A stretch of DNA of 64,000 nucleotides from Vermamoeba vermiformis (lineage: Eukaryota). Within the stretch, counting starts at the first letter, position 1. Each line of letters begins with the position of its first letter. Shown piece after piece: positions 13,372 through 51,428 of this stretch. Made by a program: the position numbers and the translations under genes. The notes under the pieces were generated by a model, which had not been told where the DNA came from, did not search any database, and was given only the letters and a program-made list of their open reading frames with translations. The DNA is taken from assembly GCA_045837725.1 (NCBI GenBank), contig JBEWZL010000213.1, forward strand, positions 1-64,000. The letters are read 5' to 3'.

Positions 13372-14429
13372 TCAGTTTTGTTTGGTGAAGTACATCTGCT
13401 TCAACTTGTCGTATCCAGCAAGCGTTCCTGCACCAGCAATGGATCGCAGTACATTCGCGCCAGCACCTTTGTACAGTGCGTGTGCTCCTTCTTTTCTAAG
13501 GATCGTTTTAAATGCGTCTGCAGTGCCGCGATACTTGACAGCTTCAGCTGATGTCATCATCATTCGTCGCTGCACGGTGTCGATCGGATAAATCAAATAG
13601 CCCGCGCCGACTGTCACACTCCAGCCCAGCATGAACGCGGTCCAAAAACTGTTCTCCGTGCCTTTCTCAGCATTCAGGACCAGAGGCTTGAGCGTGTCAT
13701 ACACGCCAAAGTAGATCCCGCGGTAGAGACCAGTGCCTACGAGCGATATCATTGCACCTCGGTATAGTCCTCGCGGTCCATCGTACTTGAGCGTCTTGCG
13801 ATACACATCCATCAAGCCATTGAATTGGCGCGGTTTGCCCTCGCGGCTGTTCTTGACATCGCTTGCGAGTCTGGTGCGGCCATAATCGAGTGGATAGACG
13901 AATATGAGTGCCGTGGAGCCTGCTAGAGCACCAGTACCAACATTGGCTGCGAAGAACTTCATTGGATGTTGTTTCCGATCGACCACTGGAAGATGAGCTT
14001 TAAAAAAATCTCTGAAGGCAAAATTAAGCGCTTGTGTGGGGAAGTATCGCAGCACATTCGGCAAGTTGCCACGCCATAGTGCTAAGAAGTTTTCCTCGCG
14101 GACCACTCGAAAAAAACAATCGGCTATTCCATTGTAGGGAGTCGATAGCTTTCCTTGCTTGATCAATTCATTCTATGAAAATAAATTTTTAGATTTTTTT
14201 TGGCATTATTTTTGATTTTAATTTCGGAAGGCGTCAAAAGTTTATCTGTCTAATGCAAGCTTGCCTTGTTTTAACATACCTGATTCTGTAACAATAATTT
14301 TATTCGTTCAGCAGGTGCTGCAGCTGTTTTACCGATCGCAGCAGCGACGCCACCCAAGAGAAAGTTCAATCCAAACTCGTACTTGCTTACTGCGCTTTTC
14401 TTAGCGACAGTGTCTGATTTAGTTTGCAT
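13372..14429 (-). CDS. Mitochondrial ADP/ATP carrier (AAC/ANT family), two exons
   Basis: [70 protein letters not shown]. Confidence 0.93.
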
Positions 14430-27486: not shown

Positions 27487-29856
27487 TCACCTCCATTCCT
27501 TTATTGCTCTCTGTTCTTGGATGCAATTCCTGGCATGTTTGTTATTCTTAATGTGATCTAAGAACAGGCCGAGTTGCTTCAGCTCCGTTGGAAGAGTAAA
27601 AAGTCCGGATGCTTGATCCACCACCTTAGCGTACTGTTCTCTGTAGTCTGCGCAATTAATAAGGTCAATAAGAGTATGTGGCGCATAAAAGACGTATTAA
27701 CCTTGATTTCTAGGAGGGTCACTCTCTTCACCAGCCGAATAACTTAAGACGCGATCTACTCGGCCAACACCAACAATCGAGCTTTTTTCTACGAGCATCA
27801 CTTTGCCACTGTAATTCTTTTCGAATACACTTGGTTTGTAGGTCTCAATGTCGTAGTGGATCAGTGGTAGGAGGATCGCTTTGGCTTTTCTCAGCGTTGG
27901 TTTTGGTGGTCGAACATAGTCTTTTCCTTTTTCGGCTTGCAACTTAACGTGTCTTTCTCTCGCCTTCGCGACTTCAATTTTGTATTCTTTTTTCAAGTTC
28001 TTTCGAGTAATGCCGTTATGGTAGTTGTTCAAGTTAGGTTTCACCGGCATGTCTTTGTACTCAAGTTTGAATTTTCTCTCGCCTTTGTAGCGATTTTTGC
28101 CGTCTTCGGGGAAGATCCACCACAAGATACACGGAATGCGTGCTGTTCCGTAGAAGACAGTGTACGTTTGATGTTGAATAAATCGATCAGGTCTCATCAC
28201 GAAAATGCTGGCTCGAAAGGCGTAAGTGCAGTTTACGCTCTGCGTTTGCCTATGATTCACGACATAACTGAACCTACGCGGTACCTCTCGCGTGGACATA
28301 CGTCTTATATTAAATCCGACGACACTGCCTGAGGGTGAGAACATTAGATCATACGTCGTTTGTCAAGTATAATTAAACGAACAAACCTGGTTTCGCCTCT
28401 CTCACGTCTTCATGATATTCCTCAATAGTACTAACCTCGGATATTTTGGTATTTGGATGAATGGCGACTAAAATGCCCGGTCTAAGCACACCGCCTATTC
28501 AAAACGTGTCAATATTATTAATCACGATGAATTTTTCATTTGACGTACTTATCACACGTCCGACTGCCACGGTACCAATGCCGCCGATCCTGTACGTGCG
28601 ACGTAGTTGAATTTTCAAAGGCACTTCGCACAGTTTTTGGAACGCTCCTTCGTCGAAGTTTGTGCGCAATTGATCTTCGAGAATCAGTTGCATTAACGGC
28701 GGTCCACCGAATGACGTTAGTTCAGGTGCAATATTGAGGCTTGTCTTAACATTCACCGGAACAATCTTGTAGCACATGCCGACGGTCTTATCGAGAAGAG
28801 TGGCTATTTTGGCTTTGGCTTGATTGAACGCTGAAAAGTGACACGTGTCAGTTTCGAAGCTCGTTGCTCATTGGTCAAAGTTGGCACGCATGTAAACACG
28901 TGTCATATCAAAGATAATTATTGTTTGCGGGAGCACTTACGATGACTCCATAAAGACTCTGTGGGTGGATAGTTATGCAAGTCAACGGCCACAATGACGT
29001 TGCGTGCACTCATCATGAAGCACGAGCCAAAGACGATCTCTTTGATCTCTTCCAAGTGCTCGTCAATCTCTGTTGGATCCACGACGAACAACAATAAATC
29101 TGCCTATAGGATTGATAAGGGGTTCAGTAAATTGTGATGGGTTGGCCTGTTTAACTTACAGCAACAGAATGTATCCACAATTCTTTTCTACGAGGTCTCT
29201 CATTCGGAGGTACTATCATAGTAAGTCGCCGGTTTTTGCCGCCATTAGCGACTTGACAGGTGTGCGCCATTGTATGATGCTGAAATCTCACGCGTTTTGT
29301 TGGCCCATAAGCGACGGTGCAAGCTAACAAGGCGGCGCCTAAACGATGCAAAATAATAAAATTAATTTCATAATAAATAAATTATTTAAATCTTACGAGG
29401 AGCACGTGTAGATCCTCTTACTTGCTGCATGTCCGGATCAAGGGCCACAATATCTTAAAATAAACTGTTAATTAATTAAATCGTATATTTTGCTCGAATT
29501 ACCATGTTCAGTAGGTAAGGATACGACTAACACGCGCAAATTATCGCCGCAAAGTCGGATCTTCTTTTTGTGCTCTAGAACATACTGAGCCAGCGCATGA
29601 ATTCGTTTATTAACTCGCACTAAGTCAAATAGTTGGATTCGATTCAGATTATCAAATATTTCGAGCAGGATCTATTTTTAAATTAATAAATTAAAATAAC
29701 AATAAATCCAAGGCACCTTGAAATGCTATTATGGCGAACATATTGCATTTATCCACTCGAATATCATTAATGGAATTTAAACTAATATTTTAAGGGAGCT
29801 TGAGTCTTTACCTCGTTTGGCAGTTCAATTAGCCACGAGAGCCGAGAGGTCTCCAT
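27487..29856 (-). CDS. F-box fused to a degenerate EF-1alpha-like protein, copy 1
   Basis: Exons 1-2 LIELPNEILLEIFDNL..LVRVNKRIHALA form an F-box. Later exons: [72 protein letters not shown] (EF1A domains I-III). Confidence 0.75.
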
Positions 29857-30004: not shown

Positions 30005-32162
30005 TCAAGGCAACTGTGTGAGGCACCGCTTAGCGTGTTTGTTATTCTTAACGTGATCTAAGAAGAGATCAAGCAATAGTTGTTCTTCTGGCAGCGAGAA
30101 AAGTAACGCAGCGTTGTTGATAACTTCTGTAGGCTTGTTGTAATTGAGATCTTGATAGCTTGTGATTAGTATATATGATGTATGATTCAGCGGCATCGTT
30201 CAGAAACTTACGAGGCAATCTTATAGCCCGATCCACTTGTCCGACACCAACAATCGAGCCTTTTTCTACGAGCATCACTTTGCCACTGTAGTTCTTTTCA
30301 AATACGCTTGGTTTGTAGGTCTCAATGTCGTACTGGTGCAGTGGTAGAAGTATCGCTTTGGCTTTTTTGAACGTTGGTTTCGGTGGTCGAACATAGCCAC
30401 TCGCATTCTCTGCCACTAATTTGGAAACTTCAAGTTTGAACTGTTGCATTTCTCTTTTGTAAGTCTCTTCATCCATCTCACGTTTCTTAGGCTTTTGAGG
30501 TAATGATACGCCATGGCGTTCAAGTTTGAATTTTCTCTCGTGTTTGTCGTGATTTTTGCCGTCTTCGGGGAAGATCCACCACAAGATACACCGAATGCGT
30601 GCTGTACCGTAGAAGACAGTGTACACATGATGGAGCATGAATCGGTCAGACTTTTTCACGGCAATACTGGCTCGAAAAGCCAAAGTGACGTTCACTTCAG
30701 CATTGACAGCGCACAACATGTAGGGAATTCGCTGTGACATCTGGTACTTACCGATGCCTCTAGCATTAACGCCTATTACATCATCTACAATACCGCGATT
30801 AGACTTTCTATGTACATTAAGCCATACTTAACTTGGTCTCGCTTCGCGAGCGGGCCAACGATTAATTTCAATGCTCGAAACTGTGCCTGCTGTTCCTGTC
30901 GGAAAAAGACAAACGTCGTCCTTCGGCTTAAGTACTCCACCTGTACGGTACTGGTTGGTAACGACTATCTATCATCATGACGTCAATCAGATCTGCTATG
31001 ACTTACAAAGGACGACACGTGTCATTTTTTAGCGTTCGATCAAGCCCGGACCAAAATTGCTGAGTTGCTCGACGATGCAGTGGGTCAATGTTACCAGATT
31101 ATTCCAGTGGACTCTGACAGAGATTGCAATATCAGAATGATAACCACCTTCAAGTGGTTCAAGGGGCCCCCGCTGAAACAACTGCTGATCGAAGATCAAC
31201 TTCGCACAAACTTTGACGAGACAGCCTATAAAAAGTTGTGTGAAGAACCAGTCAAAGTTCAAATCACTGACTGTCATAGGATTGGCGGCATTGGTGCTGT
31301 GTCAATTTAAAGTGTCACTTTTGACGCATCGGCAAAATCAACGTACCTTGTTCGGAGGGGTCATGGTACAAGTCAACGGCCACAATGACATTGCGTGCAC
31401 TCATCATGAAGCACGAGCCAAAGACGATCTCTTTGATCTCTTCCGAGTGCTCGTCAATCTCTTTCGGATCCACGACGAACAACAATAAATCTGCCTAAGA
31501 TCAAGTTACTATTAGCGTTATATCTACTAACGACGTCAGAATTAACGCACAGCAACGGAAGTGAGCCATAATAACTGTCGGTAGTGCATGTCAGTATCAG
31601 CTCGGATCAGATTAATTTCTCGTGATTTGCCGTCCGTAGAGTGCATGTAGTTGTGTACCACGGTACGGTCTTTGATTTGGTCGCGCGACAAGTACGGATC
31701 TGCCATAAATCGCTGGACTACTCGATACACTGCTGCTAAACAGAAGTAATTATTATGATCGAAGGTAAATTATAATACTATACTATAATTAGAGCTTACA
31801 AGAGGTTTTGATGGAATTAAATCCCAACACCAAAACACGCAGCTTGTCCCCGCAAAGTCGGATCTTCTTTTTGTGCTCTAGAATATATTGGGCGAGCGAA
31901 CATAAATGTTTGTTAACGCGCGTTAGTATTGTTAGCTGAAGTCTATCCAATTGATCGAATATTTCCAGCAAGATCTGTCAGAAGAAAATTTAAAAAATGA
32001 AAAAAATCAAAATTGTAATCGAAAAATATTTGAATTCCATAGAATACCGACTGTAATTAATATTTATAACTTAATTTTGCGAAAGATATCAAACGAAAAA
32101 AAGATCCCGACTTTTACCTCGTTTGGTAGTTCAGCAAGCCATGAGAACTGCTGTTGATCCAT
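30005..32162 (-). pseudogene. F-box fused to a degenerate EF-1alpha-like protein, copy 2; one exon (~31019-31298) is inverted, so the gene is disrupted as assembled
   Basis: Homologous exon by exon to copy 1 (LAELPNEILLEIFD; HKKKIRLCGD; YDIETYKPSVFEKNYSGKVMLVEK; LFLDHVKNNKHA). The exon FDQARTKIA..HRIGGIGAV reads on the + strand. Confidence 0.75.
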
Positions 32163-36781: not shown

Positions 36782-39700
36782 TTACTGGTTGTGTTCAATC
36801 TTAGTGAAGGTCCAAGCACCGTGATCTTCCAACTTCAAGAAGTACTGATGGTACTTCATCAACTGCATGCGGTGCGAGACAGTGATGAGTGTGGTGCCGA
36901 GTTCTTGCGATCTGCGGTACAAATGTTCTTCAATGTCAGTCGACACGGCTGAAGTGCATTCGTCCAAAATAGCAAACTTGGGCCTAAAAACAGATTGCCA
37001 TCGTTAGTATTTCCAAATAAGGTAAATTTTAACTTCAAAAAATTTGCCGGATGCAGACGTACTTTTTGTAGTAGATTCTAGCCATGCTGAGACGTTGCTT
37101 CTCACCGCCAGACAAAATGTCGACCCATTCCTTGACAGCGTCCCAACCTTCTCTCGTGCACAAATAAGCCAAGTCAACTTCTTCCATAATCTTGAGCAGA
37201 TCCGCGTCCGTAACACCCTTGCTCTTCATGTCTTCAATAGTGTCAGGGTAGATAATTTGTTCGCGCAATGAACCAATAGGGAAGTAAGGTCGTTGAGGCA
37301 CAAACATAATGTCGCGAATGGAAGGCTTGGTAATAGTACCGGATCTCAAGGGCCACAAGCGATTCAACACGCGGAAGATAGAGCTCTTGCCAGAACCTTT
37401 ATAAATATTAATATATTGGTCTTCGTATATTTATTGATAGCACGTACCGTTAGGACCAGTAATCAACAAGTTCATGCCGGGTCGGATCTCAAAGCTGAGA
37501 TCTTTGACGAGCATTAACTCTTCGTCTGGGGACTCAATGTCGACGTGATCGAAGGAGATATAGTCCGCAGACTCGATGTAGTTGCCTGTATTCTTAACGA
37601 GCTGTTGTGTACGCGATGAAGTGTCGCCTCTAAATCCGAATCAGGTTAGATCCGTTACACGAACTTTGATAAATCTCCACAACCAAAACAATCGTGCCAA
37701 ATATTACTAAAGTAGATATATATGCGATATAGCACTTACTTAAAGTTCTTGGATAAGAAGCCGTCGTGATCCTTTTGCAAAGCCTTGAGCAGCTCGAGCA
37801 ATTCGGCAACACGAGTAGTGTACTATATAAATACAATATGGTTATTAAATATATATTAGTATATGCCTCCTATTGATGCTTACGCCTGCCAAAGCGGTAA
37901 TTCGTTTGTACAACAAGACGACTTGGCCGGTAGCTTGCGCCAAATTGACAAGAATTTGAGAGTTTCGGATGTAAATGCCTATGAACAGTACAATATGGTT
38001 AATATAGACTATTGCGACTATATTTTAAGCGTTATACGTACCGGTAATAGCAGCGGTCTCGTCGGATGTGTCTTCCTTGTTGCCGTCTTGGTTCGGATTG
38101 AATTTCGAGGAAAGAATGCCCATAGCCAGCACTGCGTAGCCAATCATAGTAGCGCCGTACTTGACGAGCCATGAATCGAATACTAATCAATAGAGTTAGC
38201 GACGAAAAAATAAAAGTTTCAGGACTGAAGAATTGAAGCGTCGTAGTAATCTTGTAGCAAATAAGAGTAAATAAATGAAATGCTACGAGCGCTGTTACAA
38301 ATTATTTTGGGCCAAATTTCTTCGGAAAATGTTTCGCTGAATTTTTTGTATGCGGTAAAGTACTTACTGCCTACGATGGCTTGCTTGAAGAACAAGCTGT
38401 TGCAGTGCTTATATAACGCATCGAAGCTCTTGTTGACCTAATGAAACAATTAGTACGAAGAACAGATCCGAAATTGAATTCTTGAGATCTTACCAAGTTC
38501 TTTTCAATTCCCCAGCCTCTATAAAAGGCGATTTCTTCAGCGTGCATTAACAAACGGCTATGATTGAAGCGGAAATCTCCTTCGAGCTTTTGTTGCTTAG
38601 CAGTCATCTTGGCGAAGTTTGGCAACAATTTACGCATGATGAATCCGGAAAGTACGTAATAGAAGTACATCAATATAGGACCGCCATAGCCAATAGACTT
38701 GACTAAACGACGAGTAAACAAGACAATATCGACAATAGGCTTGAAAGTTGATGAATACAACTCGCTCGTGGCTGTACTGAACTTTTCTACGTCTTGTGTA
38801 ATACGCTGATCACTAATAATATTATAATATTAATATATATACATAATAATAAATCTAGAGTATTATTTTGGGTCATACTCAAAAAAAATTATAAAATTAA
38901 GTTTTGTGCGCGATCTCGATTTTGGATCTAAAAATCTTGGTACGTACATGTTATCAATAGCATCGGAGCTCATGCTCTTATAGAAGGTCAGTGCGTCCAT
39001 ATAGCGCGTGTGCAATTGATAGCTCAATCTCTTTCTGAAGCGAATGGCCAAGGTCGAAGTGAAGTACTTCAACAAGCTGTTCACGACTGAGGCGGGAATG
39101 GCCACGAGACCTAACTTGATCACACCCTGTATATAATGATATAAATACACGTGGTCAATAGTTAATCGTTGTAAGGTCGTGTTTTGTAACGAGATCCGGA
39201 ATGACATGCGGTGACATTTAGAACTCTGTAAGCTCTTAAAGTACTTACGCGAATGAACTTTTGGAAATTCTGTTGGACTAAACCTGAAGCAGTTCCACCT
39301 ATAATATTATAGCACTTAGTATTTGCAAATCACAAGCTGAAAAATCATCGAGCCAAATCCGGATCTGGATCAGCTTTACAATACTCGATTGAAATCGCTC
39401 AAATTTTATATATTAAATAGGAAATAATGAATATTGTTGGAATTTATCCTTAGTCTTATAAATTGAGACTTACCAATGACTTCAGCGACCTTGATCGACA
39501 AGATTGTTCTTAACAACAAGCAGGCAGTCAAGAAACATAGCTGCATGAACTCAATGGACTTGATTGAGGGCATTACTATTCTCAATAAGGACCATAATCG
39601 TGCTGCAAACTTTTTGTCCACGGATACTCTTGGTCGCTAGATGTCGAGTCAATAAGGAATCAAAAAATATTACGAGCATTGGGACGTAATTATTGTAATA

Positions 39701-40134
39701 TATATTATATAAGCTATACAGACATTGATTTAATTGTGAAATATGGATTATCAAAGTGGATTTGCAAAGCAAGAAATTTGACGGAGGTTTACTGTGCCTG
39801 GTGCAAAATGCAATACCAATATTATTATAATTACCTTTTGTTCTAGTATGCCCTGGCTAGCTCTATTTCGTGCTTCAGCGCGTCTGTAATTTAATAAATT
39901 AATTTTTTTAGATCCAATATTTAATTACAAATACAGTGTCAAATAATACGCTACTTACTGCTTAGACTTGTTATATGCACGTATTCCGCCTAATATTGAT
40001 GATCCAACTAATATTATAGCGACGCGTCCTCTTTTCGTGGCCCACGCAGCACGAAACGACTGGCCGTGCTTTGCCCACAGTTCTTTGGACTTGGCTCCAA
40101 ACTTACTGCCAAGATCGTACAATAAGTATTCCAT
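36782..40134 (-). CDS. Peroxisomal ABC transporter, subfamily D (PMP70/ALDP-like half transporter)
   Basis: DQRITQDVEKF, KPIVD, EGDFRFNHSRL..HAEEIAFYRG (EAA motif), LAGYTTRV, Walker A GPNGSGKSS, PQRPY, LSGGEKQR, ILDECTSAVS. Confidence 0.96.
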
Positions 40135-40210
40135 TATGGTATTCTATTTACAAAAATAAAAAGCTGAGCGGCCAGATTCGCACCCGAAATTTTTAGGTCA
40201 AGATTATCTC

Positions 40211-40457
40211 GCAAAAAAAAACATTTGAACAACGTCTTCAAGATAAACGCAATAACACTTCATTGCAGAATCGTTATTATGACCTATCGAGGCATCAGTA
40301 CGGGTCTGGAGAGCGGATCGTAAAAAGTAACGAATTTTCATTCAGAACTACTTCAATAGTGTGCACCATTTGCTGTGATGTCTGTTGCTGGCTATTTATC
40401 AAACTTTAATCGATAGATTGCAATCGAGTACGATGAGGTGGGTACCAAAGATTAATA
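40211..40457. repeat. ~245-bp direct repeat, copy 1 (upstream of ABCD)
   Basis: Aligns at roughly 90% identity by eye with 43178-43426 (e.g. atcgaggcatcagtacgggtctggagagcggatcgtaaaaagta). Confidence 0.92.
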
Positions 40458-41026
40458 AAGTCGGTCTGGAGGATGCAATAAAAGAACCCAAGTATCTTTT
40501 CGAAATTTTATTTATCACGAGCACATAGCATGTAATGTATTTTTGATACGTTTATATTTGAATTTTAATTTTTGGTCAGCAGATTCAAAATGCATCCGAG
40601 ATCAGATAAAAATTGGGCATCCTCGCACTTGGTGTTGATCATTGCTCGTGCCTTTCGTTGGTCGCGCTTCATGGTAAGTAAATTCACTGCCTGTGAATAC
40701 CAGTAAGCCTCTGATCGTTTTTTTTCAACAGGATTTGTTCTGAACGTTGCTCGATCTTCCCTGGTGACTCGTCAGAGGCCTTCTTAGACGGCGTGCGCGT
40801 TGATTTTTTAGTTGTTTTCTTCACTTCCCTTCTCTTTGGAACCGTATCGCTAATTGTTTGGTGCTTTTTTGCAAAGTGGCTCGATCAACTCTGCGTCAAC
40901 TCTTTGCCTAACTTCTTCTGCATATTTATTGCAAGTCCTTATACTACTATGGCCTTCTGCACTTCCCGTTTTTTCTTCGACTGTATCGCTAGGTGTAAGC
41001 CATTCTAATTTATTTTGGATCCTCAT

Positions 41027-43053
41027 TTACAGTATTGTTTCGGTCAACGACTTTAAAGGGTCTTCAGCAAGCCAAGGGATCACAGTTAAAGCTCCATGGC
41101 AAACTTTTCGCACACGTTCAAGTTGCTTGACTTCGCTTTCCATTCGTTTAGCCAAAACAGGGTCAGTGGTGTTTGTCAGTAACAAAGACTTGTTTACAAT
41201 CCAGCCATATGGAGATATACCAGCTCTTTTCAGATCTTCTTGCAGTGTTTCTGCTTCAGTAACTGGTGTATTTTCAGGGTGTGTGACGATAAGAATTTTT
41301 GTGTATTGTGAATCTTGCAGTCGTAACAGAGGTGTTGTTATTCGGCCATGAAATTCGGTGTTGCCTGCAAATGATCTTAAAACATCTCGGTGATAAGAAC
41401 CTGTGGCATCCAATAATAATAATGTGTGTCCAGTCGGTGCAGTGTCCATGACCACAAAGCTGTTCTTCGCTTCTGAGACAACACGCGAAAATGCATGAAA
41501 CACAGCAACTTCTTCAGTGCAAGGAGACTGTAAATCTTCTTTTAGAAACAATTTTCCTTCTTCATCAAGCTTGTCACCTTTCGAAGCAATAACTTTGTCT
41601 GTATAATTTTGCGTCTCCTGCTTGGGATCGATTCGGCTGACTGTTAAATTAATTGGCAAGTCTTTTTGCTGTTGCAATGCAATGTTCAAGTGTGCGGCAG
41701 GATCTGTTGTGGTTAAGTGAACTCTACTTTGACTTGATTGTGCTAATTTGATCGCAATGGCTGCTGCAATTATAGTCTTTCCAACACCTCCTTTGCCCAT
41801 GATCATAATCAAGCCACTCTTTTGATTTGAAGATAACAGTGCTGATATCAAATTGTCAAATGATAAGTCTTGGCTGACCAGAGCATTGTTTCGAATTTCT
41901 TCAACATTGATGTTGTTCTTTAATTGAGGGCCAGGAACAGCAAGCAATTCTTTAAGTGCATCAATACCAACAAAATTAATTGGCTTCAATGGAATTCTTA
42001 GCTGAGGTAAGCTTGCCAAAGACTGTGGAATTGCATCCAATGATTTTTTGGCTGACTCTTCAATTGCCACTGCAACTTTATCCGATGGATCTGCTGCTTT
42101 AAATACTCCATTAATGACTAATTGTTGGTTTTGTAATGAAAGCTCATTCAATTCTTGCTGTGTTCGTTCTGCTTCTTTCAGTGCACTAAATTCTGGTCTG
42201 CTAACAATCACAATTGTGCATTGTTTGCTGTCGGTAAGAGCGTCAAGTGCTTTATGGAACTTGTTTCGATGCATTGTCAAGCCAGAGTGTGGGCCTATAC
42301 AAGAAGCACCTCTTTGATTAGTATCCAAAAAACTACTCCAGGCCATGGGTAGTTTCAAAAGTCGTAGAGTGTGACCAGTTGGAGCAGTGTCAAAGATAAT
42401 ATGATCGTAACTGGATTTGATTTGTTCGTTGGCCAAGAGCTCTGCAAATTCATCAAATGTTGCTACCTCAGTTGTGCAAGCTCCTGATAACTGTTCTCGA
42501 ATTTGAGGCACTAGTTCACTTTTTGCTTGTTCATACGGTTCTAGCACTCTACGGCGATATGATTCTGCAGCACTGGTCGGATCCAAATTAACGGCGTATA
42601 AGTTTGATATTTGGGTGATAGTTGAGGGCTTGAAAATAGTCTTTGAGAGCGGGACCGAGAATATTTCGTCCAAATTACTCGCTGGATCCTATTATCGAAG
42701 CGAAATTAATAATAAAATTATTGTTTTTTTTTGTTTTCTTGACACTTACCGTACTAATTAGAAGTACTTTCTTTTTAAGAGTAGATGCGAGCACGAGCGA
42801 GGTTGAACAAGAAATAGACGTCTTTCCCACGCCACCTTTTCCGGTGAAGAAGATAAATTTTGTAATTGGCTGCGTGATATCAAAATTCGAAGCTCCTGGA
42901 AGCCCTAAAAGCTCTAACGATGATATAAAAATTAGGAAAAATACTAATAAAATATTTGGCGTTACCTCCAGAAGCAGAGGATAGTCGCCTATGTGGCACG
43001 GGCAAGCCAAAAACCCGCGCTCTTTTAGCAATCGAAATTATTCCTTTGAGCAT
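41027..43053 (-). CDS. arsA: Bacterial-type arsenite-activated ATPase with duplicated nucleotide-binding domains, a probable mitochondrial presequence and two introns (42914-42965, 42689-42749)
   Basis: Two GKGGVGKT P-loops, STDPA/TTDPA and two DTAPTGHT motifs. Metalloid Cys motifs SGACTTE, ASCIGP and SPCTEE are present. Exon 1 is MLKGIISIAKRARVFGLPVPHRRLSSASG. Confidence 0.93.
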
Positions 43054-43177
43054 GCCGTTGGTTGCAATATGTATCGCCGCTTTGCGTAGTTCAATTCAAA
43101 ATTATTTCGACCAAATAAAATCTGTGACAGGACTTCAGTTTTTTCATGAAAAGTTTCGTTGTGTTGGCGTGATCCGA

Positions 43178-43426
43178 GCAAAAAAACATTTGACCAACGT
43201 CTTCAACATCAACGCAATAACGCTTCATTGTAGAATCGTTATTATGACCCATCGAGGCATCAGTACGGGTCTGGAGAGCGGATCGTAAAAAGTATCGAAT
43301 TTTCATTCAGAACTACATCAATAATGTCGCGCCATTTGCTGTGATGTCTGTTGCTGACTATTTATCAAATTTTAATCGATAGAGTGCAATAGAGTATGAT
43401 GGGGTGGGTACCCAAACATGAATAAT
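43178..43426. repeat. ~245-bp direct repeat, copy 2 (upstream of arsA)
   Basis: Near-identical to 40211-40457. Confidence 0.92.
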
Positions 43427-43535
43427 AGAATATTTACAAATGCCTAGCATTTACGTTTAATGCTTATAACAATTAAATATAGTATTAAAAATCATAATAT
43501 ATTAATATATTAGTTCGAAAAGTATTTCTACCGCG

Positions 43536-44601
43536 ATGGGCCTGTTTAAGGGCATTGTCGCGCCCGTATCCAAGTTCCTTGGCATTTACGTGCTGGACCG
43601 TAAGTAAAAAATATATGCATCGCATAATTTTAGTAGAAAAATATTGTATATTAATCTGAGGGTTTGTGCAAAATCCCGATCGAAAAGTTTCTTGGATCCT
43701 AACAATTCCATAATTAGCAATCGTTTTGACGGCCATTGAGTACCCGAACGGCAGTGCGGCGACATTAAAACTAAAGTTAGAATCGAAGAAACACTTGAAA
43801 AAAGCAGTACGTAATTAAAAATTAAGCATCGTTGCTACATCCGAAATTGAATTCATTTTGTAACGATTCGATCTTGTAGATTGTAGGAGCATATAATAAG
43901 ACATATGGTACTGATTTTAATGAAGACGAAGTTCGATATTTATCGCGCTATGTAGAGAAGCAATATGCGATTCCTATCAGACAGACGGATGTAGGTTCAA
44001 CTATTGACCATTTTAACGCCGTTAAAATATAGAATTGTCCTATAGTATTTAAATACGAAGGTATAAGCTTATTGAATAATATTTTAGGACCTTACATTCG
44101 TCAAAACGGAGGATCTGATCTTGTGGTCTCGGTAAGAATGATAAATATTAAAAGAATTAAATACTAACGCGCATTTATGATTAGAAATGCACCTATTCCT
44201 TACAAAGGCATCGACCTATCTCCTGAAGGAGAGTTGGATCTTGCTAAAGGTACTTCAGAAATTCCGTTCATTGTCTTAGTATATTCGCTCGTCTTAAAAT
44301 TTTGATAATTTTATATTATAGAAGTAGCGGAGGCTATCAATTACATTTCTTCGCTGGCTCAGAAGCGGTCGAAAGCGGATGCAGAAGAGAACGAAGAATT
44401 AATGATTAGATTGTTAGCGGAGCATAGAGACACCTCTTTATTAACAGTAAGCACCACATTATACTATACTACGTAATTAAGTCTATTATACAGTATTATC
44501 ACAGCTTTAAATCAGATCCAGAACGGTTCCAACAGTACGCGAGAAAATATATCAGCACGAATTATCGAAAGGCCAAAAAAGACGATAAAGACGATGACTA
44601 A
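43536..44601 (+). CDS. Small multi-exon hypothetical protein (possible ubiquitin-like domain)
   Basis: GT-AG exons splice in frame: MGLFKGIVAP../AIVLTAIEYPNG../IVGAYNKTYG../YLNTK/DLTFVK../NAPIPY../EVAEAI../YYHSFK..DDKDDD*. Confidence 0.6.
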
Positions 44602-48429: not shown

Positions 48430-51428
48430 TCAGCTTGAGAATTCCATCTCGAAGCGGAATAACTCGTTTGCGTTCTCCTTCATGTAGGGATACCACATTA
48501 TATAGCTGTAAAATAGTTAGTAAAATCTTTTGGTTTTTTTTGTGACTTACTTCGTGGCCCAGATATTATTGTAAATACAAAAATGAACTCCGTCGGTCAC
48601 GGATGCGGGAGTAAAAGGTACGGGGAAGGGGTTCGTGGTGCCTACTGATAACAAAGGTACATCAGGCGTTCGAATATGCAACGTGTTCTTATCAGCATTG
48701 GTGAATTTGACGCCGTCCCAATGACCGTGCAAGTGTTGGGACCCATTTTGCACGATATCAACTACAGTCCTATTAGCTCATATTATACTATCTAAATATA
48801 TAGTACGTACTAGGCGAGACCCACTCTCCTAATTTGTTAATAAAAGTCTCTTCGGGCTTCGTGATTCGTGGCTTGAATGACAGCCAAAGTGCCTCGGGCA
48901 ATCGGGTCGGAGTTTTGTTGAACATTTGGAACAAGAATTTAATGCTGAAAAAACAGTTAGATTAATAAAATTATAGTAGTATAATATATATTGAGGTACC
49001 TTGTGCCATTTTTAGGAATTGTAACGGTCATCCAAGAGCGTTCTGGCGCGCCAAAATTTAGGATCGAATCTCCACTAGTAGTCAAGTAAATATTGAAAAT
49101 CCACGACTCCTTAGTCTCCTTATAATAAAATTGTTCCGCTTTCGTGGTCCATTCAAAATGTTTTGCGCCGCCTTTGCTCGTACAATTCGGCTTGGCAAAG
49201 TCAAGTTCAAACCAAGGACAATCCGTGTGCCAATCGCAATAGCCGTATTGATCTATGTAATCTATAAAATCTTGTTCACTGAACGTAGTATATACGAATC
49301 GAGCAGCGGAATAATTGCCAGATGTAATTGGCACCCAATCGACTCCCGAGATCTTGTCGCTGATATAAACTAGGCCACCGTGAGATCCAAAGGCTACATT
49401 AAATCTTCCGCATTCAAAAATCTCATTGGCGAATTTTTTGACACGAGTAAAGCCGTCCAAACTCGGTTCCTAGAAAAAATAATGGATCAGATCGAGATCT
49501 TTTTTTGCGCCGAATAATATACCTTAGGAATAAGTTGAATGACCTCTCTGGATATTAAAGAGACTAATGGATGGTCTTGAAGTGCATCAATAGCGAAGAA
49601 AATGAATTGCCTTTGTTCTTTCCACGAGTCTTTCATCGTAACAAAATTCGGATCGTTCATGACTTGGCCAAAAGCAATATTAGACCAGTTCTCCCTATTA
49701 TAGAAGTATGAGTATAGTCCTATCATTTTAGTATAGTCTAATCTTACCAATCATGCAAAAAAGTTTTAACATCCAGACCCCATGTATGTTCAGCTGCTTT
49801 GACTAATAGTCTGTCGAAGTCTTTAATGCGCTGATCATCTAACTTGCACTCGTTTTTCTCGAAGCAATAATCACGAGCTCGAAGAATAGCTCTGAACAAT
49901 TTGTTTTTGAACGGATCGGATGCGACTACAAAATTTAAGGATTAATTTCGGTATTACTGCTTATATAATAATATTAACGTACTTCCATGGATCCAAGTGT
50001 CGCCTATTTCGCTATTAATAGTTGGCAAGTTCTTTTGATAAGGCAAGAACTCGTTGACGAATCTATCGAAGGTAGATGCGACCACTTTAGCGTTAGGAAA
50101 TTCAGTTTGAACGTCTTTGTAGTTTTGTAGAATTTCTGCAACACTTTCTGGAGGACCTTGGTTGTCTCCTCTAAATGCGGAGACTAAGGCATGGTTCAGA
50201 TCCGGAATAATAACTGCATCGTCAACAGAATAGCCTCCATAGCCACCTATCGTATACACCATTAATATTAAGTAATTTGTGGGCAATTTCAGGCAAAAAT
50301 AATAGTTTTTGAGCGAGATATAGTACCTGGATGATACAGCGTCAAAATGCTCTCGCTGTGCTCGGGATTTCGCTTCGAAGGAGACCATAAAAATGCTTTA
50401 GGGACTGCAGGTGGTGCAGAACCTCCATTAACACCGACAGTAATGGCCTTAACACCAGACTACAAGAATGTTAATAAAAGAACTAGATCTTGTTCGAGAC
50501 TCACATCTTTCAATATCTTAATGACGCTGCTAGTCATGCCAGGGACATCTCTTTGTGACATTACGATAGTTTTGTTTCGTCCGTACTTCGCGTCCTGGTG
50601 AATTAGAGTCCGTTACAAATTGCCTTTTTAGGAAATAGCAATAAAAATGAATACTTACCAAATCTCGAGCGATGGAAAGACTATCCTTGAATAGACGAGC
50701 ATTAAGGTATTCAGGCTAAATAAAGATAATTAACTTCGATAAAAATTTAGCGGATCTCATTTTAGACTTACTTCAGCATTGAAAGGAAATACGTGCCAAG
50801 CAATATAACCCTTTCTGATACCCTCTTCGAACTCTTTAAGAGCTGTATTGTTAGGACAATGTAATGAACCTTGGCCAGGCAAGCCATTTAACGAAGGGCA
50901 ATCGGTGTACATTGACACTAACCACGGATGTGTCGTGTAAATGAATCTAAATGCACATTCAGCAATCATTTATCGTTCTTATTATTTAATATATTATTTT
51001 TATCCTTATTTAAGCAAGTACTTACGTTTTGCCAGACCCGCCATTTTCAAGTTCTTTAGCCAAGCGGATGGCGCGAGGGAAATATTCATCAAAATATTTA
51101 TTCATAACATTAACAGCAAATCCAACTATTTTTATTGATAAATTTAGGATTAGAACAGATATCTCTTGTTTGAAATGTTTGCAAATATATTTTTTACCTG
51201 TTGGATCAATGCCATCAAAGCCAACATCGAGATGATTCATGAATACTATAAGCATTAATATTAATTCATAATATTATCCGAGTAGATTCGCTTACCTAAA
51301 TGAACATATTTGACATCTGACGGATTCACTCGCTCATTTTTTGTTCGACTAGCACTAGCCACGCAAAATAATACATAAAATGCTATAAAAGCGAGTATAG
51401 CTCTATTTTTGAGCATATTCGCACCCAT
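48430..51428 (-). CDS. Secreted/lysosomal glycoside hydrolase, GH38-like (DUF5054-type)
   Basis: Signal peptide, FMNHLDVGF, FIYTTHPWL, AWH..PFNAE, QRDVPGMT, VGVNGGSAPP.VP, DNQGPP, EIGDTWIHG..SDP, EHTWGLD, KTPTRLPEALWLSF, YNNIW.TNYIMWYP. Confidence 0.8.

Follow-up and report, generated by a model that had tools for sequence, protein, structure and literature searches.

A stretch of 64,000 nucleotides (nt) of Vermamoeba vermiformis DNA (contig JBEWZL010000213.1, positions 1 to 64,000; hereafter, the window) carries on its minus strand, at 41027–43053, a nuclear gene of a microbial eukaryote that has two spliced GT-AG introns and encodes a two-domain ArsA of bacterial type, as distinct from Get3 and its organellar paralogues. 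The gene is of bacterial ancestry, the catalytic and metalloid-binding residues of its product are conserved, and a basic N-terminal leader is present both in this protein and in its counterpart from a second species. A first-pass annotation, made from the letters alone, had read the locus as a horizontally acquired ATPase retargeted to mitochondria. The horizontal acquisition was borne out by the present analysis, whereas retargeting is a plausible reading, for which the evidence consists only of the composition of the leader, an R-x-S-S motif, a separate exon for the leader and the retention of a leader of similar kind in one relative.

Gene model and splicing

Four public sequencing runs (X1, DNA; X6, RNA-type; X21 and X23, RNA-seq) were compared with positions 38500–44500 of the window. 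Run X6 is from a close relative, with contigs 95–99% alike the window, and its RNA nature was guessed by the tool; it was taken as RNA because DNA contigs would keep the introns. One X6 contig of 365 nt lacks both arsA introns, with borders exactly as modelled (joints 42687>42749, cut +1, and 42913>42966, with CT..AC ends on the plus strand), and the RNA-type contig of arsA extends to about 43068. Thus, the two short GT-AG introns that had been predicted at the 5′ end are removed in this run. The features of the gene are as follows.

41027–43053, minus strand: arsA gene, three exons, product of 637 amino acids (aa)
43053–42966, minus strand: exon 1, residues 1–29 plus one base, the basic acid-free leader, with RRLSS at 42976–42990
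42965–42914, minus strand: intron 1, 52 nt, GT..AG, 23% GC, removed in the X6 contig
42913–42750, minus strand: exon 2, the rest of the N-terminal extension and the first P-loop, GKGGVGKT (42819–42842)
42749–42689, minus strand: intron 2, 61 nt, GTAAGT..AG, 21% GC, removed in the X6 contig
42688–41027, minus strand: exon 3, 553 codons plus the stop codon TAA (41029–41027)
42371–42391 and 41426–41446, minus strand: the two DTAPTGH motifs, in exon 3
41774–41797, minus strand: the second P-loop, in exon 3
42476–42478, 42299–42301 and 41519–41521, minus strand: codons of Cys155, Cys214 and Cys474, in exon 3
41009–41014, minus strand: AATAAA hexamer 15 nt past the first base of the stop codon, a possible polyadenylation signal judged from its letters only

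The exons, joined by coordinates, give an open frame of 637 codons, and no other in-frame ATG lies between the upstream in-frame stop and the ATG at 43053. Homology to bacterial ArsA starts at about 42872, inside exon 2, and intron 2 interrupts the bacterial-derived coding sequence between the equivalents of T44 and D45 of plasmid ArsA. As no Met is encoded in exon 2, the exon 1 leader must be present in every product. A second in-frame acceptor could in principle be used 9 nt further downstream of intron 1, but the X6 contigs gave no sign of its use. The 3′ end of arsA had no RNA coverage in the runs compared. An X1 DNA contig is one base short at 42927 relative to the window at full depth (382.9/382.9); this position lies in a T/A run within intron 1, and the missing base has no effect on the protein.

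Identity as ArsA

The spliced product contains two P-loops (GKGGVGKT at residues 54 and 382) and two DTAPTGH motifs (residues 184 and 499), in agreement with the pseudo-dimeric ArsA proposed previously, and its two halves are 29% identical to each other (E 7e-25). Exon 3 alone, which accounts for 553 of the 637 residues, matched the Pfam ArsA_ATPase family with an E value of 7.7e-76. The same exon scored 660.3 bits (E 2.5e-198, profile positions 40–564 of 565) against NCBIfam TIGR04291, a curated ArsA equivalog with a cut-off of 650 bits, and 296 bits against TIGR00345, the broad GET3/ArsA/TRC40 subfamily model. In a phmmer search of PDB, the scores were 527 bits for Escherichia coli R773 ArsA (1f48) and 501 bits for Leptospirillum ferriphilum ArsA (9nbl), compared with 87 bits for Chlamydomonas reinhardtii ARSA1 and 49–76 bits for Get3/ASNA1 chains. 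The alignment to 1f48 is collinear, with short gaps only and without a Get3-type insert, and the product is 49% identical to a Klebsiella plasmid ArsA.

The three cysteine motifs that had been equated with the metalloid ligands of R773 ArsA were located as expected: Cys155, Cys214 and Cys474 sit in SGACTTE, ASCIGP and SPCTEE, respectively, and fall on C113, C172 and C422 of 1f48 in a HMMER alignment (residues counted by hand from the printed alignment). In P0248, the protein of the relative described below, the corresponding C161, C220 and C480, together with H196, H511 and S478 (the serine ahead of the third metalloid cysteine), are invariant in 36 of 36 aligned sequences, comprising P0248 and 35 bacterial-type proteins. 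No CxxC or CxC motif was found among the six cysteines of the window product.

The fold leads to the same assignment. An AlphaFold model was made for P0248, not for the window protein itself (mean predicted local distance difference test score, pLDDT, 82; predicted template modelling score, pTM, 0.81). In Foldseek comparisons with this model, the closed forms of L. ferriphilum ArsA (9nbo/9nbw) were the best matches, with template modelling (TM) scores TMt of 0.89–0.90; 9nbl gave 0.80, and E. coli ArsA gave 0.81–0.83 (1f48, 0.82). Chlamydomonas ArsA1 (5zme) reached a TM score of 0.50 at 19% identity, and Get3 covered one half only (TMq 0.34–0.39).

Residence in a eukaryotic nucleus

The gene lies among eukaryotic genes. 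The window also encodes a G-protein alpha subunit, an ADP/ATP carrier and a SET/MYND protein, and a gene for an ABCD-type half transporter (PF06472) is located directly downstream of arsA. In X6, 11 further intron-like joints were found in two neighbouring genes, namely five CT..AC joints in the ABCD gene, and five GT..AG joints and one non-canonical joint in a plus-strand gene starting at about 43226. At 43401–43521, an X6 contig skips 119 nt with GG..AA ends, perhaps because strain differences shifted the alignment. The GC content at third codon positions (GC3) of arsA is 0.324, compared with 0.29–0.63 in nine host exons and 0.54–0.78 in four bacterial arsA genes. Around arsA, bacterial signals occur at chance level, with 10 sigma-70-like promoters (7.8 ± 3.1 expected) and two terminator-like structures (2.7 ± 1.5 expected).

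Such a gene could be an artefact, if bacterial DNA had contaminated the sample or if the assembly were chimeric at this place. The best DNA match, X1, covers all 30 bins of 38500–44500, with an even word depth across the gene and its flanks (381–703 over arsA, 355–748 in the other flank bins and 260 at 40510–40710), and one X1 piece (41922–43280) joins arsA to the first 100 nt of copy 2 of a direct repeat (see below), a copy that contains the start of the plus-strand host gene. The linkage to flanking eukaryotic genes, for which long reads had been envisaged, is thus provided by DNA contigs, and these are short: no single listed X1 piece spans all 6 kb, and X1 is possibly the source sample of the window, which makes it weak as independent support. 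These two points speak for an artefact. Against it stand the two spliceosomal introns removed in RNA-type contigs, the host-like GC3, the even depth, the piece linking arsA to the start of a host gene, and the presence of the gene of the relative on independent contigs from JGI and Logan, the longest of which has 113,552 nt. An artefact is effectively refuted already, and its probability is close to nil.

Bacterial ancestry and a eukaryotic relative

From 5.8 billion protein clusters, 8000 candidates were scored, and the best 120 of these were listed. Among these 120, one cluster (P0001, 10 members) was 83% identical to the window protein, and all others were 50–55% identical. The matches named among them were all bacterial (Myxococcales, Polyangiaceae, Polyangiales, Ferrovibrio, Parvibaculum, Methylobacterium, Rhizobium and Sphaerotilaceae). 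ArsA was also matched by 2196 plasmid records, with a Paraburkholderia plasmid at the top of the list (51.8% identical). A scan of genome contigs found five loci with 36–48% identity, which served as outgroups only, and two scans of metagenome contigs, with the window protein and P0001 as queries, gave no confirmed locus.

A tree of 73 rows was constructed using a quick method (LG+G4). It included the window protein, P0248, 64 of the 119 other listed matches (all named ones and every second of the rest), three plasmid ArsAs and four genome loci. The window protein and P0248 joined with a support value of 100 on a long stem (0.93), inside a clade of 60 rows (support value of 99) that is otherwise bacterial or unnamed. 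This clade holds a group with Myxococcota-labelled rows (28 rows) and a group with Pseudomonadota-labelled rows (28 rows). Long branches and a deviating letter make-up were flagged for both eukaryotic rows, and their position within the clade is a fork at which the donor may have been Myxococcota-like or Pseudomonadota-like. A grouping with Get3 or organellar Get3 paralogues, which the first-pass annotation had named beforehand as contrary to its reading, was found neither in the tree nor in the profile matches, PDB scores or fold. Judged by these sequence relationships, the gene was acquired horizontally from a bacterium, and its bacterial origin is not in doubt.

The members of cluster P0001 also provide information on the age of the gene structure. 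The transcript-type members P0247 (643 aa) and P0248 (644 aa), from contigs of 3.4 kb, are continuous over both intron positions and have a leader homologous to exon 1. The genomic-type members P0241, P0243 and P0249 (contigs of 113,552, 22,732 and 17,127 nt, respectively) diverge from the transcript-type members exactly before the D-P-A-S-N that opens exon 3, which indicates that intron 2 lies at the same position in the relative. Because the relative shares this intron position and a homologous leader, the gene had been transferred and had acquired intron 2 and its leader before at least two species diverged. P0247 and P0248 differ by one Arg in the leader, which could be allelic or the result of a shifted splice acceptor.

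Between the window protein and the relative, 490 of 590 core residues (83%) are identical, compared with 20 of 45 leader residues (44%). Four differences within arsA were among those listed for X6, with 32 more on the stretch beyond them; two synonymous differences fall in exon 2 (T61 and T67), and two non-synonymous ones in exon 1 (A9G and P18R). From these identities and differences, the core is judged to be under purifying selection and the leader to evolve fast, a pattern as in targeting peptides.

N-terminal leader

Bacterial ArsA aligns from residue 42 of the modelled protein on, leaving approximately 39 extra N-terminal residues. As the first-pass annotation had described, exon 1 is basic, free of acidic residues and contains a cleavage-like RRLS/S: residues 1–29 include six Lys or Arg, one His and no Asp or Glu, and the first acidic residue is at position 30. 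The P0248 leader has seven Lys or Arg, with the first acidic residue at position 36. The longest hydrophobic run in the window leader is four residues, so the leader is not a signal peptide; that of P0248 is likewise basic, acid-free and without a long hydrophobic segment. In the P0248 model, residues 1–46 have pLDDT values of < 50 except for residue 5 and thus lie outside the fold, and a short helix is predicted at residues 3–9 with low confidence. The exon 1 peptide had no source elsewhere in the window by tblastn (best other match, E 0.32).

The consensus of the mitochondrial processing peptidase has Arg at position −2 or −3. RRLSS, at residues 22–26, aligns with KRNSS of P0248 and would fit a processing site with Arg at position −2. 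A mitochondrial import signal is a plausible reading of the leader, and on its composition one that we slightly favour.

Proposed function and alternatives

In available sections of PMC12415280, ATP-driven closure of the ArsA halves is described as producing a transient three-coordinate As(III) site, activating hydrolysis and handing the metalloid to a carrier, and ArsD as raising the As(III) affinity of ArsA from millimolar to micromolar. All residues needed for this mechanism are present in the window protein, and it is quite likely that the protein would show As(III)-stimulated ATPase activity. From these conserved residues, we infer that the protein may serve arsenic detoxification in the host.

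Our explanation for the locus is as follows. A bacterial gene was acquired and became a nuclear gene for a complete, selectively maintained ArsA, that is, an intradimeric Walker-A ATPase activated by As(III)/Sb(III). After the transfer, the gene adopted the base composition of the host and gained an intron within its bacterial coding sequence, as well as a 5′ exon, set off by a second intron, that added approximately 39 residues before the bacterial N-terminus; within a duplication of 245 nt, it took up a head-to-head position with a host gene. The basic, acid-free leader might direct ArsA into the mitochondrial matrix and would probably be cut between R-x and S-S near residue 24. The matrix would have the same topology as the bacterial cytoplasm, and a carrier in the inner membrane would face ArsA correctly. 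There, ATP-driven closure of the two halves could form the transient three-cysteine As(III) site, and the metalloid could be passed to an inner-membrane carrier, presumably either a co-acquired ArsB/Acr3 or a carrier of the host. Clearance of As(III) would protect dithiol-dependent enzymes of the matrix. This chain as a whole, from an acquired functional ArsA through mitochondrial import to matrix As(III) defence with a carrier, is offered tentatively, as a reading somewhat more apt to fail in one of its links than to hold in all. That a eukaryotic lineage has rebuilt the bacterial ATP-driven arsenite pump inside its mitochondria, with imported ArsA docking on an inner-membrane carrier and clearing As(III) from the matrix, is the most far-reaching reading of the locus and an unlikely one.

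Several observations weigh against this explanation. A tblastn search with three plasmid ars operons found none of ArsR, ArsD, ArsB, ArsC and Acr3 in the 64-kb window, as already noted for ArsB, Acr3 and ArsD in the first reading of the sequence; the sole match outside ArsA was to Acr3, with an E value of 0.83. Since eukaryotic genes would not be expected to be linked in an operon, this negative concerns the pump rather than the family assignment of the protein. A partner of ArsA in the matrix is purely hypothetical, and, according to parts of PMC12415280, ArsA binds As(III) with no better than millimolar affinity when ArsD is missing. The maximal hydrophobic moment of the leader in an 11-residue window (0.68) was reached by 719 of 2000 shuffles of the first 24 residues and by 527 of 2000 shuffles of the first 29; for an 18-residue window, the corresponding counts were 948 and 1046 of 2000. 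The splicing of arsA was seen in a single X6 contig of low depth (4.5) from a run whose RNA nature was guessed, although its many intron-like joints argue for RNA. Finally, the RNA-seq runs X21 and X23, which have the same species label as X1, placed only 22 and 20 reads, respectively, on the 6 kb, with a depth of ≤ 0.1 over arsA and of up to about 2.4 per direction over the ABCD neighbour. These two runs (95–99% alike the window) are too thin here and neither support nor deny the expression or splicing of arsA. Their reads in the ABCD gene (38500–39700) differ from the window at many fixed sites, and they probably come from another strain or a close species.

The same acquired and functional ArsA might instead act in the cytosol, where it could energise or feed an Acr3/ArsB-type carrier of the plasma membrane or vacuole, the extension being a linker, a membrane-association segment or neutral baggage. 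The amphipathicity of the leader, which is not above that of shuffled sequences, would be in keeping with such a role, as would the ACR3-family gene in the bacterial ars cluster L007. Acr3 is also a reasonable partner in general, given that arsA accompanies acr3 as well as arsB in bacterial operons (available sections of PMC2963123) and that Acr3 has been validated in eukaryotic genomes (excerpts of PMC11370035). However, the extension is encoded by its own exon and, with an exon 2 devoid of an alternative Met, is borne by every product; it has also been kept in kind (basic, acid-free and serine-rich, with an M-L-K/R start) in a relative whose core is only 83% identical. We therefore regard a cytosolic ArsA as somewhat unlikely, but as an alternative of substance.

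The leader might also direct ArsA elsewhere, for example into a plastid or a mitochondrion-related organelle, or give it two destinations at once. Transit peptides are likewise basic, poor in acidic residues and rich in Ser, and the composition of the leader would fit them as well. The nearest named homologues of the ADP/ATP carrier encoded in the window are only 54–62% identical to it, which also favours this alternative. On the other hand, the leader lacks the hydrophobic signal-peptide segment needed for a complex plastid, and nothing in the window indicates photosynthesis. This destination is improbable.

A third alternative is that ArsA has taken a job unrelated to arsenic, as a chaperone or Get3-like targeting factor, or is drifting towards loss. 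The window without an ars partner and the near-nil coverage in the two RNA-seq runs are what such a change would lead one to expect, and ArsA homologues are described as functionally promiscuous in parts of PMC2963123. However, the three metalloid cysteines, both DTAPTGH histidines and both P-loops have been kept in both eukaryotic species, the protein has remained collinear with 1f48 and has neither a Get3-type insert nor a CxxC or CxC motif, no stop interrupts the 637 codons, and 83% of the core residues are the same in the two species. A change of function or an incipient loss is thus unlikely, and a maintained ArsA with a possible mitochondrial leader is the reading carried forward here.

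Flanking repeat and other features of the window

The arsA gene lies within a 2.7-kb unit bracketed by a direct repeat, of which only two copies occur in the window.

40215–40458, plus strand: direct repeat copy 1, flanking the arsA unit at its 3′ end; identity to copy 2, 92% (246 aligned columns)
43180–43425, plus strand: direct repeat copy 2, 127 nt upstream of the arsA start codon, containing the start of the spliced plus-strand host gene

The ABCD gene has its 5′ exon approximately 80 nt from copy 1, and an X6 RNA-type contig runs from 43226 onward, inside copy 2. In the simplest reading, drawn from these positions only, foreign DNA would have been inserted where two promoters lay head-to-head, duplicating 245 nt of the target. 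The segment from the end of repeat copy 1 to the arsA stop codon (40459–41026) had no Pfam match, no ars homology and no X6 RNA depth. Rfam detected one tRNA only in the window, far from arsA.

Other parts of the window contained features of separate interest. A minus-strand open reading frame (ORF) at 48957–49469 matched DUF5054 (PF16477, E 2.8e-14), and an adjoining ORF at 49954–50397 had no Pfam match; located 6–9 kb from arsA, these ORFs may be another bacterial-type gene. The minus-strand ORFs 27697–28362 and 30069–30827 are paralogues sharing long identical peptide stretches, by appearance a local duplication. The named homologues of the ADP/ATP carrier exon (13372–14172, minus strand) are from plants and a fungus, and unnamed environmental relatives are 92% and 83% identical. 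Such identities suggest a host from a eukaryotic lineage that has been sampled poorly.

Significance and comparison with known systems

True ArsA has been treated as prokaryotic in surveys of the family. In the available text of a Get3 survey, bacteria and archaea are the only groups credited with the ArsA class (PMC6593721), and parts of the work of Castillo and Saier place eukaryotic homologues in clusters 3 and 5, with average lengths of 345 and 401 residues, which is single-domain size (PMC2963123). A full-text literature search did not turn up any eukaryote with a bacterial-type ArsA, although supplementary tables of gene transfers could list one. With a eukaryotic ArsA that is spliced and conserved, transfer between domains is shown to be possible for the ATPase half of the pump as well. 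The locus also provides a worked example of the domestication of a foreign gene, with a reset base composition, intron gain, a leader exon and a place beside a host promoter in a 245-nt duplication. If the leader is an import signal, it raises a testable question on mitochondrial arsenic handling and on which membrane protein ArsA serves. A mitochondrial pump, if true, would be a first in two respects, as a primary-active defence against arsenic at the level of an organelle and as a case of true ArsA put to use by a eukaryote. The coupling of ArsA to ArsB is presented as an open question in sections of PMC12415280, and the protein described here may help to address how ArsA is coupled to its carrier.

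Among known systems, bacterial ArsA (R773 1f48 and L. ferriphilum 9nbl/9nbo) is the closest to the window protein. The two have in common two homologous halves in one chain, both P-loops, both DTAPTGH motifs, the equivalents of Cys113, Cys172 and Cys422, collinearity and the fold. In contrast to the bacterial genes, the window gene is a eukaryotic nuclear gene with two spliceosomal introns and host codon composition; its product has an N-terminal extension of approximately 39 residues, and it stands outside any operon, with no arsD, arsB or acr3 nearby in the 64-kb window. Eukaryotes have taken up other bacterial arsenic genes, including the arsenite carriers of Galdieria and arsM in several lineages. 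These share with the window gene the theme of domesticated prokaryotic arsenic resistance, but they are carriers or methyltransferases, whereas the window gene encodes an ATPase subunit.

Get3/TRC40/ASNA1 shares with the window protein the superfamily of intradimeric Walker-A ATPases and the Pfam ArsA_ATPase domain. Get3, as characterised in available sections of PMC6593721, has a single domain, dimerises via a zinc-binding CxxC, and possesses a hydrophobic groove and an insert but no metalloid cysteines; the window protein, in contrast, has two domains, lacks CxxC and keeps the metalloid cysteines. Chlamydomonas ArsA1 (5zme) and the red-algal tandem cytosolic Get3 are, like the window protein, eukaryotic, two-domain, single-chain proteins, and both are treated as Get3-type tail-anchor factors in the accessible parts of the literature (PMC5382584, PMC11170914, PMC6593721). 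The organellar Get3 paralogues of Archaeplastida, plastid and mitochondrial, are superfamily ATPases with N-terminal organelle-targeting extensions, as the leader of the window protein may be. These paralogues are single-domain Get3-like proteins according to portions of PMC6593721, whereas the window protein scores above the cut-off of the ArsA equivalog model and nests inside bacterial ArsA.

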